The position numbers and the translations under genes were made by a program. Shown piece by piece: positions 1-5,788 of a DNA stretch of 7,140 bases (the first letter of the stretch is position 1; each line of letters starts with the position of its first letter). A model generated the notes under the pieces. It was not told the DNA's origin. It searched no databases and worked only from the letters and a program-made list of their open reading frames with translations. The stretch comes from Escherichia coli (GTDB lineage: Bacteria; Pseudomonadota; Gammaproteobacteria; Enterobacterales; Enterobacteriaceae), in NCBI RefSeq assembly GCF_003334385.1, contig NZ_QOWN01000073.1. One strand, given 5' to 3'.

Positions 1-32
<32 letters not shown>

Positions 33-775
33 CCATTTTTACTGTAAAACCGTGGCCAATATTACTTGACCACTACAAGTTAGCTGAGATGTTAAGCTGC
101 TGGCTGCATACACCTTGCCAAATCTAATCGCTGTTATCTTAACCAATTTCCAGGATACAAGGGGGCGATTACTGAGAATGCTCTCAGACTGTCACTCACC
201 AGATCGGATACGTTTACTGCTCAGGCGGATGCTTAATGCACTCTGTTCAGGTGCATTGCAGGTACGTTTTATGTACGCAGGTTATACGCCAGTTATCAGG
301 GATAACCCTGTGAGTACAACGCAATCTGTTGCTACTGGGTAGACTGGTCTGCTGATCACACTCACAGATTTATTTCACATATATGAACTCATGTGTTTGA
401 GCTCTCTTATATATTTATAATACCAATCAGACAGTCTTATCCCACCAGTGATACCTGTCGCCTGCCCACAGGTCACGGGCTGATGCACCACAACCGCCTT
501 CAAAAACAACTCTGCAATTATCAGAACGCCAGTTTTCCCCTTGTCTCACGAAAGTCCTCCCTCCTTTATCACGTGCGCGTGCGGAAGCATCGTTTCGCAA
601 CAATCACCCGACATACCGGTACGGCTCAGCCACCGCAATCCCCCCGTTTATCTCCTGACGGTCACATTCCCGATTATTTTTTACGTTTTTCCCCGGTTGT
701 TATGCCGGGGAAGGTGGTGCGTTGTTTTCATCACCAACGCCGGTTGAGATTAACAACATCCGGAGGAACATTTTC

Positions 776-982
776 ATGAATACCCCAGTTTCACTGATGG
801 ATGACCAGATGGTCGACATGTCGTTTATCACTCAGCTGACCGGCCTGACCGATAAATGGTTTTACAAGCTCATCAAGGATGGTGCCTTTCCTGCCCCCAT
901 CAAACTGGGCCGTAGCTCCCGATGGCTGAAAAGTGAAGTGGAAGCCTGGTTGCAGGCACGTATTACACAGTCCCGTCCGTAA
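776..982 (+). CDS. alpA: AlpA-family prophage regulatory protein (small HTH DNA-binding protein, 68 aa)
   Basis: ATG at 776 preceded by GGAGGA at 762-767 (8-nt spacer); stop TAA 980-982. Translation MNTPVSLMDDQMVDMSFITQLTGLTDKWFYKLIKDGAFPAPIKLGRSSRWLKSEVEAWLQARITQSRP has the size and single helix-turn-helix layout of AlpA/Vis-type regulators. The track ORF 722..982 adds 18 N-terminal codons with no RBS, so the internal ATG is preferred. Family call is from recall, not a search. Confidence 0.7.
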   Translation: MNTPVSLMDDQMVDMSFITQLTGLTDKWFYKLIKDGAFPAPIKLGRSSRWLKSEVEAWLQARITQSRP

Positions 983-1067: not shown

Positions 1068-1640
1068 ATGCAAAAACTTGAAAACCGGTGTGAGCTGCTG
1101 CTCATCCAGCATCAGAAATGGATGACAAACGTGACGAGGCTTATCGTCGCTCATGGAATGGGGGCTCCGCATCTTCATGGTTATCACCGCCTGACCCTGG
1201 CCCACTTTTTTCTGCCAGAAAAAGGCACCATCATCTCAGTGGCACCACAGGGACTCTATCAGGTCGTCAACCCGGGAACACCACCGTTCATTCCTGCCAT
1301 TCAGGAAGGGTTAATGACCAGCATTCAGACCCATGAAATCATGCTGCTTACACATTTTAATCTGGGCGGCGTTTTACTCAGTGAGCTACATCGTCTGGGT
1401 GAAAACCGGCTGGCAAACAGGCTGAACAGCCTGCTCCGGCGTTTCAACGATCGTGATCTCTACCACACGCTGATATGGCTGTGCTGGTATGATCTGATGT
1501 GTGCTCACTCCATGCAGCCCTGGACTGAAGAGTTAAAGCATAAATCACATGCAGAGCTTGAAAACTGGGCTGTGGCGCGCAAACGGGAAAAGCGCGAGCT
1601 GGAACTGATGATTGACGAGTACCTGTTATACGCCTGTTGA
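1068..1640 (+). CDS. hypothetical protein (190 aa), function unknown; probably co-transcribed with the AlpA-like gene
   Basis: ATG at 1068 preceded by AAGGAGA at 1054-1060 (7-nt spacer); stop TGA 1638-1640. The track ORF starts at a TTG (1041) upstream of the RBS, so the ATG is preferred. Only 85 bp separates it from the alpA stop, same strand. I do not recognise the protein; it may belong to the small proteins often found beside alpA in such islands, but that is unverified. Confidence 0.6.
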   Translation: MQKLENRCELLLIQHQKWMTNVTRLIVAHGMGAPHLHGYHRLTLAHFFLPEKGTIISVAPQGLYQVVNPGTPPFIPAIQEGLMTSIQTHEIMLLTHFNLGGVLLSELHRLGENRLANRLNSLLRRFNDRDLYHTLIWLCWYDLMCAHSMQPWTEELKHKSHAELENWAVARKREKRELELMIDEYLLYAC

Positions 1641-1678
1641 TTCATAACGCTCCCGGGCCTCCGCACACTTACTTTTCC

Positions 1679-1712
1679 TCCGTCACCCTCATGCAGAAGC
1701 GGGGGTGACGGG
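1679..1712. other. GC-rich hairpin between the convergent 190-aa and 496-aa genes (possible bidirectional terminator or processing site)
   Basis: Inverted repeat tccgtcaccc (1679-1688) / gggtgacggg (1703-1712), 9-10 bp stem with ~14-nt loop, in the 120-bp gap between the two convergent stop codons (1640 and 1761). No clear U-tract on either strand, so not a canonical intrinsic terminator. Confidence 0.3.
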
Positions 1713-1760
1713 CATACTGCGATACCACCACTGAATAATCCGTCTCAGCAACAGGGAACA

Positions 1761-3251
1761 TTATAAGCCAAAGGATTGCTCATGCCATCTTATCAGTTTC
1801 TGGCTGTAGCACGCATTCAGTTCAGGCAGCGTGATATTGTTTATTTCGGAAAGCAGGACATAGGTGGTTTTTCCTTCCTGCACGACAGAGAGCCTGAGTT
1901 GAGATGCAAGAATGTTCAGCAGGACGTTCAGCTTTTTCCTGTTCCGGAACCGGCCCGGGCCACACTGGAGAATATAATTTTTCCTGACACGGGGCGGGCA
2001 TTCTCCGCGGCACTCCTCAATGAGCCAGTCGAACAGCTCCTCGGCGTCCTTCTGCTGCAGTTCAGATTCATCAGGTAACGCAAATAATTTTTTATATTCA
2101 TCTGTGTACCACGAACTTATTACGACAGCAGACGTCATGATATCGGCAGAGATTTTCCCTTCACCCTGACTGAAATACTGCAATAACGCAGCAATTCTCG
2201 CAATGTTTTCTGTTTTTTTTGAAACATGCCCCCGAAACTGGCTTAAGGGTCCGGAAGGAGACAAATCCTGCTCCAGAACATTATAGTGATCAATAAATAT
2301 TTTTTGCGCTTCAGGAGAAAAATGCAGACAATAACGTTCATCCTTACTGGATTTTTCAATACTGCCTCTGGCCAGTTCCATTAATCGTTCATGAAATGCC
2401 GTTAATGATCCTCCCGGGGTCACAGCTCCGTTAATAAAGCGTTTCCCCTGCGTGGTGGCAGGTTTACTGATTAGACAACGGGCAAGAAAACCACTGTCCC
2501 TGGCAACAGAACCTTTTCGCTCCATATATCGGTCAAAAAGACCGGGTTGTACCATGAGGGATAATGTCATTCTAGCATTTTCAATCATCTGTTCGGGTTC
2601 ATTCTTTCTGTCCACCGACAATACGGAGCCATCCCACATTTTGTTAATAAAAGGCAGCTCAGACAGGGTATACCCATCAAATATTATACCGGCTTCATCA
2701 GACATGATACCCACTGAACGCCACTGACCACAAAGCTGATCTTTAATTGCTGCTGTCGTGGCATCATTAAAAATGAATTTATATCTTACAGGTTTTTCCC
2801 CTCTGTTTTTCTGAAGCGCTTCCAGTTGTCTGAGCGTTTCTGACTCATCCGCGCCTTTGCGGAGTTCTTTATTCAGTTTTGACAACAATGCTTTTTTCTG
2901 CGCCTTTAAAAGCTCTTCCTTATTTTTCCATATCGTCAGTTCATTTTTGTGTCTGGAATATAACAGCATCTCCTGCTGGTACAGGGGCTCCATTAATAAT
3001 TTGTCCACTGCGGTTTTTCGTTCTCCGGACTCAGCAAGCGTCAGTAAGAAAAGAGAAACCGGCCCCCGCAGTGTATTCAGTCTGCAGACATCAATCAGAT
3101 TCTGGCAGACAAGTGAAACAGCGCCCAGGGCAGATGCTGCCACAAGCCCCAGGGGAGCCTGCGTGATTTGCTGAGCTTCAATAACGGCATCACGAATGAG
3201 TGGAGGCAGCGAGCTCAGGGGAAACTCATCAGGATACTGAAAGTATGGCAT
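1761..3251 (-). CDS. P-loop NTPase-like protein, tentatively DUF3987 / YfjI-like family (~496 aa)
   Basis: Long uninterrupted minus-strand ORF in AT-rich DNA, where long chance ORFs are unlikely. Preferred start is ATG at 3251-3249 with GAGGT 5 nt upstream; the track ORF starts at GTG 3269. Stop TAA (complement of 1761-1763). Protein contains a degenerate Walker A-like LAESGERKT and a Walker B-like GIMSDEAG, plus an N-terminal PLSSLPPLIRDAVIEAQQITQAPLGLVAASALGAVSLVCQ stretch that I recall as typical of DUF3987/YfjI-like proteins. Family assignment is recall-based and unverified. Confidence 0.55.
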   Translation of the reverse strand: MPYFQYPDEFPLSSLPPLIRDAVIEAQQITQAPLGLVAASALGAVSLVCQNLIDVCRLNTLRGPVSLFLLTLAESGERKTAVDKLLMEPLYQQEMLLYSRHKNELTIWKNKEELLKAQKKALLSKLNKELRKGADESETLRQLEALQKNRGEKPVRYKFIFNDATTAAIKDQLCGQWRSVGIMSDEAGIIFDGYTLSELPFINKMWDGSVLSVDRKNEPEQMIENARMTLSLMVQPGLFDRYMERKGSVARDSGFLARCLISKPATTQGKRFINGAVTPGGSLTAFHERLMELARGSIEKSSKDERYCLHFSPEAQKIFIDHYNVLEQDLSPSGPLSQFRGHVSKKTENIARIAALLQYFSQGEGKISADIMTSAVVISSWYTDEYKKLFALPDESELQQKDAEELFDWLIEECRGECPPRVRKNYILQCGPGRFRNRKKLNVLLNILASQLRLSVVQEGKTTYVLLSEINNITLPELNACYSQKLIRWHEQSFGL

Positions 3252-3744
3252 AATGACCTCACAACACACAGAACATAAAGTACCGCAACTATTGCTACTA
3301 ATAGCAAAAATAGCAGCAGAATCAATACAGGATAAAAATTTCTGTCGATTTTCAGATTAAATAATAACCATTCGGTATTTTGTCGCTAAAGAATGTTAGA
3401 ATGAATCTGTGCGTCTACGGGCGCTCTCCGGAACACACATGTTGATTAATTTTCACACAACAACGTACCAGCAAAAAGCATCATCCAGGGTATTGCAGGT
3501 ACGGGTTTCCTGCCGGGAATAAACATAAACAGTTTCCCCGGAGTAACGCTTTCAGAAAACTGCCCTCCTGAAGAAGAATAAAATAAAGAAGATGACAGTT
3601 CCTGCACTGAATGCTGAGTACAATATTCTATGGACAGGATGACATTTTTATAAATAACAAAAACCATTTAATACTGATACATCAATAAAATACTTCCTCC
3701 CTGCTGACACAGATAAAATGCAACATTTTTTCTTCAAATACTTC

Positions 3745-3753
3745 TGTATAATC
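3745..3753 (+). promoter_or_regulatory. candidate sigma70 extended -10 element (TGTATAAT) inside the AT-rich region
   Basis: tgTATAAT at 3745-3752 on the + strand with no good -35. AT-rich DNA produces many such matches, so this is weak. Confidence 0.2.
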
Positions 3754-4084
3754 GCCAGCCAATGATGAGAATGGATTAAAATAACACTTCTTCGACAAAC
3801 ACAAAAACCAGCCTTCATTTTCACATCATCATCCAGTTTTAATTAAACCCTGACGAGCGACAGTATTTCAGTTCAGGAATTAAAAGCCAGCTATTACTCA
3901 GTAAAAACACCACCAACTAATAATATCTCAGCAGATATTTCCTGACCAGGATGACACATTTATTAAAGATTTTTAACAGGACACTTCACATTACTGAACG
4001 CTATTCCGACAGTATCACTACACAAATAAAAAAGGGAACTGGATAAATATTCATGCCGGAAGAATGGTGTAACAAAAGCATTTA

Positions 4085-4097
4085 ATCATTACGTGCG
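4085..4097. repeat. 13-bp direct repeat, copy 1 (atcattacgtgcg)
   Basis: Exact 13-mer atcattacgtgcg at 4085-4097, repeated at 4209-4221; the two copies flank the 30-bp palindrome. Confidence 0.6.
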
Positions 4098-4110
4098 TAT
4101 TCCTCTCTAT

Positions 4111-4140
4111 TCGATCACGGTTTGGCCAAACCGTGATCGA
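4111..4140. repeat. perfect 30-bp palindrome (15+15, no spacer) carrying two GATC sites
   Basis: tcgatcacggtttgg|ccaaaccgtgatcga is exactly self-complementary; GATC at 4113-4116 and 4135-4138; central TGGCCA. Read directly from the sequence. Confidence 0.9.
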
Positions 4141-4208
4141 TTCAGATGCCATTTTGCAAGTACGCATGACCCGGAAGGGAAACACTTAACAACATGGTAT
4201 CAACAGAT

Positions 4209-4221
4209 ATCATTACGTGCG
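4209..4221. repeat. 13-bp direct repeat, copy 2 (atcattacgtgcg)
   Basis: Exact second copy of the 13-mer at 4085-4097. Confidence 0.6.
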
Positions 4222-4527
4222 CACTCTTATAAAAATACACAGCAGAAGCAAGATAACTCTAAACGTAAATTTAATATCTCCCACTGACTGCCCCGACAAT
4301 ATACTGAAAAATACTCACCTCAGTAAACATAAACACACCTGATAATCAGGCTGCAAGATGAATATTTTTCTCCTTTACGGAGTAATCAGCCTGCTGTTTA
4401 ACAATAACCGCGTATTTTCATGGAAGGATATCACCCAATAACGGATAACTCCTGCCCTCCTTCATGTTAATACGCAACATCCCCATCGATTCCAAACAAT
4501 TTCAGACAGATATTATCTCCGTGAATC

Positions 4528-4567
4528 CCCCGCCACCTTTCCGGTGTGCGGGGTTTTGTCTTTTTTC
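4528..4567 (+). terminator. intrinsic (Rho-independent) terminator-like hairpin plus T-tract immediately upstream of the GTPase start codon
   Basis: Stem ccccgccacc (4528-4537) pairs with ggtgtgcgggg (4543-4553) as 10 bp with one bulged T, loop tttcc, followed by ttttgtctttttt (4554-4567). GTPase ATG is at 4583. Confidence 0.5.
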
Positions 4568-4582
4568 ACCGGGAATACATGT

Positions 4583-5455
4583 ATGAATCCGTCTGATGCC
4601 ATTGAGGCAATTGAAAAACCACTTTCTTCCCTGCCTTACTCGCTTTCCCGTCACATCCTGGAACATCTGCGCAAACTCACCAGTCACGAACCCGTGATTG
4701 GCATTATGGGTAAAAGCGGGGCCGGTAAATCCTCACTCTGTAATGCGCTGTTTCAGGGGGAGGTCACCCCGGTCAGTGATGTTCACGCCGGCACCCGGGA
4801 AGTGCGGCGCTTCCGTCTGAGTGGTCACGGTCACAGCATGGTTATCACTGACCTGCCCGGGGTGGGCGAGAGCCGGGACAGGGATGCAGAGTATGAAGCC
4901 CTGTACCGTGACATTCTGCCTGAACTGGACCTGGTGCTGTGGCTGATTAAAGCCGATGACCGGGCCCTGTCTGTGGATGAGTATTTCTGGCGACACATCC
5001 TGCAGTGCGGACATCAGCAGGTGCTGTTTGTGGTGACACAGGCCGACAAAACGGAGCCCTGCCATGAATGGGATATGGCCGGCATTCAGCCCTCTCCCGC
5101 ACAGGCACAGAACATTCGCGAAAAAACGGAGGCGGTATTCCGTCTGTTCCGGCCTGTACATCCGGTTGTGGCCGTATCGGCCCGCACCGGCTGGGAACTG
5201 GATACGCTGGTCAGTGCGCTCATGACAGCGCTTCCCGACCATGCCGCCAGTCCCCTGATGACCCGCCTGCAGGACGAGCTGCGCACGGAATCTGTCCGCG
5301 CTCAGGCCCGTGAGCAGTTTACCGGTGCGGTGGACCGGATATTTGACACAGCGGAGAGCGTCTGTGTTGCCTCTGTTGCACGCACGGTTCTGCGTGCCGT
5401 CCGTGACACAGTGGTCTCTGTTGCCCGCGCGGTATGGAACTGGATCTTCTTCTGA
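4583..5455 (+). CDS. yeeP: YeeP/YkfA/YfjP-family GTPase (50S ribosome-binding GTPase-like, 290 aa), apparently intact
   Basis: Translation MNPSDAIEAIEKPLSSLPYSLSRHILEHLRKLTSHEPVIGIMGKSGAGKSSLCNALFQGEV... contains G1/Walker A GKSGAGKSS, G3 DLPG and G4-like TQADK. I recognise the sequence as the island GTPase found directly upstream of flu. The track ORF 4544..5455 begins inside the upstream hairpin; ATG at 4583 is the more plausible start. Stop TGA 5453-5455. Confidence 0.88.
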   Translation: MNPSDAIEAIEKPLSSLPYSLSRHILEHLRKLTSHEPVIGIMGKSGAGKSSLCNALFQGEVTPVSDVHAGTREVRRFRLSGHGHSMVITDLPGVGESRDRDAEYEALYRDILPELDLVLWLIKADDRALSVDEYFWRHILQCGHQQVLFVVTQADKTEPCHEWDMAGIQPSPAQAQNIREKTEAVFRLFRPVHPVVAVSARTGWELDTLVSALMTALPDHAASPLMTRLQDELRTESVRAQAREQFTGAVDRIFDTAESVCVASVARTVLRAVRDTVVSVARAVWNWIFF

Positions 5456-5539: not shown

Positions 5540-5610
5540 AGCTTGATAATAGAATAAAACGATCGATACCTATTTTATCGATCGTTAATATCGATCGCTA
5601 TACTAATAAT
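5540..5610 (+). promoter_or_regulatory. agn43 (flu) promoter / phase-variation switch: OxyR-binding region with three Dam GATC sites
   Basis: Three CGATCG motifs with GATC at 5561-5564, 5580-5583 and 5593-5596 (spacings 19 and 13 bp), ~200 bp upstream of the flu ATG. This matches the known Dam/OxyR epigenetic switch of agn43. Exact -35/-10 and TSS cannot be fixed from sequence alone; TTGATA at 5543-5548 is a candidate -35. Confidence 0.8.
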
Positions 5611-5760
5611 AACTCCTGTTAGCAACGTGCGCAGATACACACAGACATGAGATTCAGGGAACAACAGAGCCACACGTCAGAAACTTCCGTCAGCCGGACC
5701 TCCGGCACTGTAACCCTTTACCTGCCGGTATCCACATCTGTGGATACCGGCTTTTTTATT
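5567..5760 (+). ncRNA. isrC: agn43 leader RNA / IsrC-like small RNA (prematurely terminated flu 5' leader); boundaries approximate
   Basis: The 3' end is defined by the intrinsic terminator at 5724-5760; the 5' end is assumed to be the flu TSS near the GATC cluster. From memory, an sRNA (IsrC) is annotated in the yeeP-flu intergenic region of E. coli K-12; coordinates here are inferred, not verified. Confidence 0.4.
5724..5760 (+). terminator. intrinsic terminator in the flu leader, ~30 nt upstream of the flu start codon
   Basis: Perfect 12-bp stem gccggtatccac (5724-5735) / gtggataccggc (5740-5751), loop atct, followed by ttttttatt (5752-5760). Confidence 0.75.
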
Positions 5761-5788
5761 CACCCTCACTCTGATTAAGGAAATGCTG

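Follow-up and report, generated by a model that had tools for sequence, protein, structure and literature searches.

The window, as the whole stretch of 7,140 nt analysed here is called, is an E. coli genomic island. It matches E. coli chromosomes over its full length with 99.8% identity, and at least 80% of it is present in 1272 complete genomes. The features placed on it are listed in Table 1. Across a gap of 120 bp, the 190-aa gene (+ strand) converges on yfjI (− strand); a preliminary description of this DNA had proposed a 190-aa gene converging on a large gene across a gap of this length, and the RefSeq annotation confirms that layout. The same description called the large gene a P-loop gene, which is a fair label given that YfjI matches Pfam DUF3987 (E = 2e-94) and that Walker A/B motifs are conserved in representative DUF3987 proteins (PMC11724360). 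One DUF3987 member, AgaPH, is an experimentally proven 5′-3′ helicase (PMC11724360), and YfjI belongs to PHROG 2373, annotated as 'DNA helicase'. The product of yfjI is a putative mobile-element helicase.

Table 1. Features of the window around the convergent gap (window coordinates)
Feature	Position	Strand	Basis
IS3 transposase gene, end	1-69		RefSeq annotation of the best-matching genome, converted to window coordinates
Helix-turn-helix regulator, AlpA/excisionase-like	776-982	+	RefSeq annotation of the best match; family resemblance
190-aa hypothetical protein	1068-1640	+	RefSeq annotation of the best match
C-rich, G-poor tract, rut-like on + RNA	1641-1678	+	C/G values; contains TTTT at 1673-1676
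Stem-loop	1679-1712	both	inverted repeat, fold, both-sided changes between alleles
Proximal yfjI 3′ UTR, stop codon to stem	1713-1760	−	annotation; C/G 1.67 on the + strand
YfjI family protein gene (yfjI)	1761-3251	−	RefSeq annotation of the best match
GTPase family protein	4583-5455	+	RefSeq annotation of the best match
agn43	from 5789	+	RefSeq annotation of the best match

The 190-aa protein has no family match in precomputed Pfam, NCBIfam or PHROG assignments and, with 11 database relatives altogether, belongs to a tiny family. Its gene and the AlpA-like helix-turn-helix (HTH) gene at 776-982 are probably one operon. The counterpart of the HTH gene in a related locus (L005) is a member of Pfam Phage_AlpA. 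Upstream of the HTH gene, related islands carry hha and a gene of the inovirus Gp2 family; in this strain hha is truncated beside IS3 (window 1-69 and 393-779). Between the divergent yfjI and GTPase genes there is a region of 1.3 kb (3252-4582) with no annotated gene. Its G+C content is 36-39%, while the rest of the window has 45-60%, and its AT skew is strongly positive. Both promoters, that of yfjI and that of the GTPase gene, are probably inside it, and it may be a target of H-NS/Hha-type silencing. Transcription of the island is probably weak; the flanks are AT-rich and hha is close by, so 3′ ends may be under weak selection.

The stem-loop between the convergent genes

The gap contains an inverted repeat, CCGTCACCC (1680-1688) and GGGTGACGG (1703-1711), with 9-nt arms that are 100% complementary, 14 nt apart, and form G-C pairs at seven of the nine positions. 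When folded in RNAfold, the + strand gave an uninterrupted stem of 12 pairs (1679-1690 with 1701-1712), of which two are G·U, and two further inner pairs. The element is a near-palindrome and so folds in both transcripts, with −23.0 kcal/mol on the + strand and −19.8 kcal/mol on the − strand. Among the 40-nt folds of the window it ranks second in stability, behind a canonical terminator at 5724-5751. The stem starts 39 nt past the stop codon of the 190-aa gene and 49 nt from that of yfjI.

A perfect 9-bp inverted repeat with a loop of 3-20 nt was seen in 0.24% of 5000 dinucleotide-shuffled gaps, and about 0.5 such repeats are expected per shuffled 7140-nt window. Chance origin of the stem is unlikely. 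The GC-rich stem of 9-10 bp that had been noticed between the convergent genes is thus real, being a perfect 9-bp repeat with a stable fold. It had also been called the sole structured element of the gap, and this stands as well: the pair at 1680-1711 is the only short-range inverted repeat there, the other two inverted repeats in 1600-1800 having arms 109-182 nt apart. Folding of the gap as a whole is unremarkable (z = −1.2 on either strand).

Covariance models of Rfam 15 matched nothing at the stem-loop at E ≤ 1, and a known RNA family was rejected. The only match in the window at this threshold is full-length Rfam RF00124 'IS102 RNA' (256 bits), a known element at 5559-5764, between the GTPase gene and agn43. 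This match ends in the canonical terminator mentioned above, which consists of a 12-bp stem (5724-5751) and a T-run.

The two structures are alike in their GC-rich stems and in stability (−23 kcal/mol for the stem-loop of the gap and −24 kcal/mol for the canonical terminator), and they differ in the 3′ U-tract, which the stem-loop of the gap lacks on both strands. Immediately past the stem, the 8-nt tail is GCATACTG on the + strand, with two T, and AGGAAAAG on the − strand, with none. A terminator scan that required at least five T in 8 nt did not call the site 1679-1712. On the + strand, a TTTT (1673-1676) ends 2-3 nt before the stem, and it corresponds to an AAAA that comes after the stem on the − strand; this sole T-run of the gap lies on the wrong side for both transcripts. 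The statement that no T or A run flanks the stem is therefore correct as far as a U-tract on either strand is concerned, but it overlooks the TTTT that adjoins the stem. A weak, non-canonical intrinsic terminator working without a U-tract in one or both directions, perhaps aided by NusA/NusG, would fit with a stem as stable as those of intrinsic terminators, and intermediate cases with reduced U, terminated by both routes, are discussed by Dar and Sorek (PMC6061677). With tails of two and zero T, no call in the scan and the T4/A4 run on the wrong side of the stem for both strands, this explanation is nevertheless improbable.

The nucleotide composition around the stem differs between the strands. 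On the + strand, the C/G ratio of 1620-1697 is 2.42, which is about the top 5% of the 78-nt windows of the analysed DNA; it is 3.2 ahead of the stem (39 nt, 1641-1679) and 1.67 behind it (49 nt). Such a composition from the stop codon onward fits what would be expected for loading of Rho after departure of the ribosome. On the − strand, the C/G ratio is 0.45-0.68 just past the stem and reaches 1.6-1.7 only from about 1640 downward, i.e., about 40 nt further on. The G-rich RNA just past the stem looks poor for immediate loading of Rho on the yfjI transcript.

Two alleles of the gap and the gene that carries the stem

Two alleles of the gap were recognized in E. coli: type A, which is that of the window, in about 1060 genomes, and type B in about 1180, together roughly 2200 of the 5426 complete genomes. 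Loci with 100% identity to that of the window are present in SYNB1934 and in O25:H4 strain 18044. The divergence of the two types begins at about 1646, six bases past the stop codon of the 190-aa gene, and nucleotide homology is not regained before 1842, within yfjI; the divergence (window 1641-1842) takes in the last ~27 codons of this gene. Type B has a 17-bp perfect stem at the same position, AT-richer, with the arms TTCATCACCGATATTCA and TGAATATCGGTGATGAA, and it has no U-tract either. This stem is 32 nt after the stop codon of the + strand gene and 59 nt from that of yfjI (39 and 49 nt in type A). The + strand bias is the same in type B, with C/G of 2.4 before the stem and 1.56 after it. 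The only sequence common to both stems is the core TCACC/GGTGA.

A pattern anchored in the flanks, with the hairpin left free, found 36 metagenome contigs, which were combined with the E. coli genomes for the definition of haplotypes. Three haplotypes of type A are present among the matches listed, designated as window, SCU-109 and K_EC180 types. Some sequences of the window type have G6 in place of G5 at 1701-1705 in the right arm; this was read in six of the 36 metagenome contigs and makes the stem longer (−26.5 kcal/mol). The G5/G6 difference could be true variation in homopolymer length or an assembly error. In the SCU-109 type, a mid-stem G is changed to A, so that the pair becomes C·A in the + RNA but G·U in the − RNA. 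In the K_EC180 type, pair 9 is changed on both sides from C-G to A-T, and there is an additional outer G to A change. Across the three type A and two type B haplotypes, the hairpin folds with −16.5 to −30 kcal/mol on both strands.

When both types were aligned in MAFFT without guidance, the alignment landed on the TCACC/GGTGA core, and it was then analysed in RNAalifold. The consensus is a stem of 12 pairs, five of which have changed on both sides and are still paired. Paired cells amount to 95.8%; in 500 shuffles the figure was 82.8% and never as high as in the alignment, and with the 3′ partner slid it was 32-64%. The covariation score is 0.539 versus 0.259 for shuffles. This covariation comes from few independent events, essentially the split between A and B and one change of the K_EC180 type. 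If types A and B were independent palindromes, the covariation count would be uninformative, and what remains is a strong hairpin without a U-tract, co-located in both. According to strand, 69 of 72 cells are paired on the + strand and, after a recount, about 66 of 72 on the − strand. Two variants fit the + RNA better and two the − RNA, and assignment of a strand from the patterns of G·U versus C·A was rejected because they are mixed and show no strand preference.

The compensatory changes across two diverged alleles speak for the stem being a working element and against a leaky accident. The opposite explanation, a neutral leftover palindrome without function that is carried together with the 3′ end of yfjI in a largely silent island, is consistent with the small number of haplotypes, with flanks that diverged about as much as the stem, with the uncompensated mismatches in the metagenome variant L041 and in the SCU-109 type, with a gap that is overall no more structured than shuffles, and with a covariance model of the hairpin that matches nowhere else in the related loci. 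It is at variance with the strong stem kept at the same position in both diverged alleles with five of 12 pairs changed on both sides, with folding of every variant at −16.5 kcal/mol or better, and with the rarity of a comparable stem in the shuffled gaps. Neutrality is for these reasons rather unlikely.

A site acting at the level of DNA was considered as well, in which a dimeric island protein, for instance the AlpA-like HTH protein or the YfjI helicase, would recognise the TCACC...GGTGA repeat, or in which the repeat would be a mark for recombination or replication beside the helicase gene. The core is the sole invariant part between alleles A and B, the stem has no RNA-strand preference, junctions of modules are 20-35 nt away (~1646-1660), and CCGTCACC, with one mismatch at most, is mildly over-represented in the window (11 occurrences, 5.1 expected; 2 of 200 shuffles reach this number). 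The core half-sites, however, are 16 nt apart in type A but 22 nt apart in type B, which is awkward for one dimeric binder; no iteron cluster or AT-rich unwinding region adjoins, and the TCACC sites are scattered. Moreover, the changes outside of the core keep the pairing, and a protein site does not need them to. Such a site is quite improbable. A more specific form of it is very doubtful; here the core would be a DNA or RNA recognition site, either for the DUF3987 helicase, which would load at the 3′ terminus of yfjI itself, or for the AlpA-like protein, and the hairpin or cruciform would mark a site of replication or recombination at the junction where modules are exchanged. In replication origins of the P4 type, type I iterons TGTTCACC are clustered beside an AT-rich region. 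Iterons or an origin of this kind beside yfjI were rejected, as sites similar to TGTTCACC and TCACC sites are scattered, with no cluster in 1600-1800 and no direct repeats near the gap.

Two further candidates on the − strand extend over the hairpin or toward it. An ORF of 30 aa (1761-1669), whose start overlaps the yfjI stop codon in TAATG and which spans the hairpin, has a frameshift in SCU-109 and breaks off after three codons in the K_EC180 and VTB types, and a small protein was rejected. The other is a small antisense RNA which would start from a promoter-like site on the − strand, run into the end of the 190-aa gene and have the stem as its 3′ structure. The site, ATGGCA-17-TATAAT (1788-1760), agrees with the consensus in 10 of 12 positions and is about 40 nt upstream of the stem, but promoter-like matches are no commoner in the window than in shuffles (11 vs 8.7), and this TATAAT overlaps the stop codon of yfjI and is absent from the other alleles. 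The U-tail of an Hfq-type sRNA is also missing, as is an Rfam match. It is highly improbable that the stem belongs to such an RNA.

Among the loci compared, the type of the hairpin always matches the type of the yfjI 3′ end. The upstream gene, in turn, exists in two alleles, of 190 and 200 aa, and all four combinations with the hairpin types occur: in the window, in SCU-109 (L009), in SW070917 (L074), and in strain 190 (L073). In some strains yfjI is replaced by IS remnants, and homology there stops at about 1658, short of the hairpin; breakpoints and junctions of homology cluster at about 1646-1660, 20-35 nt from it. In A24, strain 190 and the viral contig L064, a remnant of about 30 nt of the 190-aa gene 3′ end follows the 200-aa gene. 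The 200-aa allele is accompanied by a separate GC-rich stem of 9 bp, GGCAGACAG and CTGTCTGCC (2427-2454 in L009, about 2140-2170 in L011), without a clear U-tract, and the gap in those strains has two hairpins.

A 37%-identical relative of the 190-aa protein (L005 4001-8573 and L006) is encoded in another element, after an AlpA gene and an ORF of 46 aa. Downstream of it are BrxR, GmrSD and a type I restriction-modification system, but no yfjI, and the hairpin is therefore not regarded as part of the 190-aa gene. The position after a gene of the 190-aa type may be a hotspot of cargo or defence genes. The hairpin is thus assigned to the yfjI module, most simply to the yfjI 3′ UTR, and it also stands in the path of any read-through transcription on the + strand. 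Orthologues of the hairpin after distant yfjI genes (~50% protein identity) were searched for with the two-allele covariance model in 16 loci of Enterobacterales and nine loci of viral contigs, eight of them distant, and none was found. The sequence downstream of the distant yfjI genes, computed on 14 of the 16 Enterobacterales loci, is AT-rich and unrelated.

Proposed role in 3′ end formation

The reading preferred here, to which a probability of about 0.55 is given, is that the stem-loop defines and stabilises the mRNA 3′ ends of both convergent units, rather than releasing RNA polymerase alone. The units sharing this 3′ region would be yfjI on one side (−) and, on the other, the AlpA-like gene together with the 190-aa gene (+). 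For this site we infer transcription across it, involvement of Rho, trimming by exonucleases, and pausing of polymerase. On the + strand, the ribosome would leave at 1640 and Rho would load on the C-rich and G-poor RNA around the stem. Termination by Rho would then be diffuse and take place further on, inside the antisense of yfjI, and 3′-5′ exonucleases (PNPase, RNase II) would shorten the transcript until they reach the stem base. The 3′ end of yfjI, on the − strand, would be shielded by the stem as an exonuclease barrier. When both units are active, the hairpin might pause the converging polymerases, and these would meet in the gap and not in the genes, as in a bidirectional terminator of the collision type. 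Because the RNA just past the stem is G-rich on the − strand, the stem is better seen there as an exonuclease barrier or as a pause that positions the collision. The earlier suggestion of Rho-dependent termination for the two transcripts is plausible; it agrees with the C-rich, G-poor + transcript and less well with that of yfjI (C/G 0.45-0.68).

Rho-dependent transcripts of E. coli have precise steady-state 3′ ends just after stable stem-loops without U-rich tails (Dar and Sorek 2018, PMC6061677). These stems block PNPase and RNase II, and an excess of C over G is enriched downstream (PMC6061677). The stem-loop of the gap resembles these protective stems as a stable structure tens of nt past the stop codon with neither a U-rich tail nor an upstream A-tract, and C exceeds G after the stem on the + strand. 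It differs from them in that, on the − strand, G-rich sequence directly follows the stem, and in being common to two convergent genes. Between convergent genes, elements that encode a hairpin make polymerases pause and fix precise 3′ boundaries, although they do not look like intrinsic terminators (Wang et al., bioRxiv 10.1101/2022.10.23.513370). With bidirectional terminators (Ju et al. 2019; Wang et al., 10.1101/2022.10.23.513370) the site has in common a single hairpin in a short convergent gap that folds on both strands and does not look intrinsic. That mechanism works best at highly expressed genes, whereas the island genes are probably not such genes. The class is further defined by overlapping and sharp 3′ ends of the two transcripts, which do not need Rho but do need convergent transcription. 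Term-seq data were published for EHEC (PMC7547250).

The preliminary description had gone from the missing U-tract to inefficient termination and from there to antisense interference between the two genes. This step is unsupported, as stems without a U-tract do give defined 3′ ends (PMC6061677; 10.1101/2022.10.23.513370). If the antisense interference were true, expression of the AlpA operon would be coupled to that of the putative helicase; nothing in the present analysis indicates such coupling.

With REP elements, the hairpin shares the character of an extragenic palindrome in a 3′ UTR, and it is unlike them in being non-repetitive. Its sequence is presumably unrelated to the REP sequence. 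The 281-nt region of the hairpin was found in 1-3 places per genome (median 1, maximum 3), all of them in copies of this island, and in 210 kb of related loci the two-allele covariance model matched this locus only. A REP or another dispersed repeat was ruled out, since the element is single-copy per island. For REP hairpins, a double role in termination and stabilisation is described, convergent gene pairs included; there they go together with higher expression of the two genes and work in part via Rho (10.64898/2026.03.23.713779).

The stem-loop is real, conserved and previously unannotated, and the class of element to which it is compared is well described in publications. Its importance hardly goes further than annotation: a common E. 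coli island gains one conserved 3′ UTR stem-loop that had not been annotated. At the same time, it is a natural test case for hairpins of convergent genes without a U-tract, as the alleles differ in sequence, length and G+C content of the stem at the same position. Comparison of the two alleles in combination with two different upstream genes could separate the effects of stem and context in definition of the 3′ end.

Another palindrome is located elsewhere in the window, at 4111-4140. It is perfect over 30 bp, without a spacer (TCGATCACGGTTTGG|CCAAACCGTGATCGA), and unannotated in RefSeq. A direct repeat of 18 nt (ATCATTACGTGCG...) flanks it at 4085 and 4209, and it looks like an operator or another protein site. 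Parts of this segment are also present on two E. coli plasmids.
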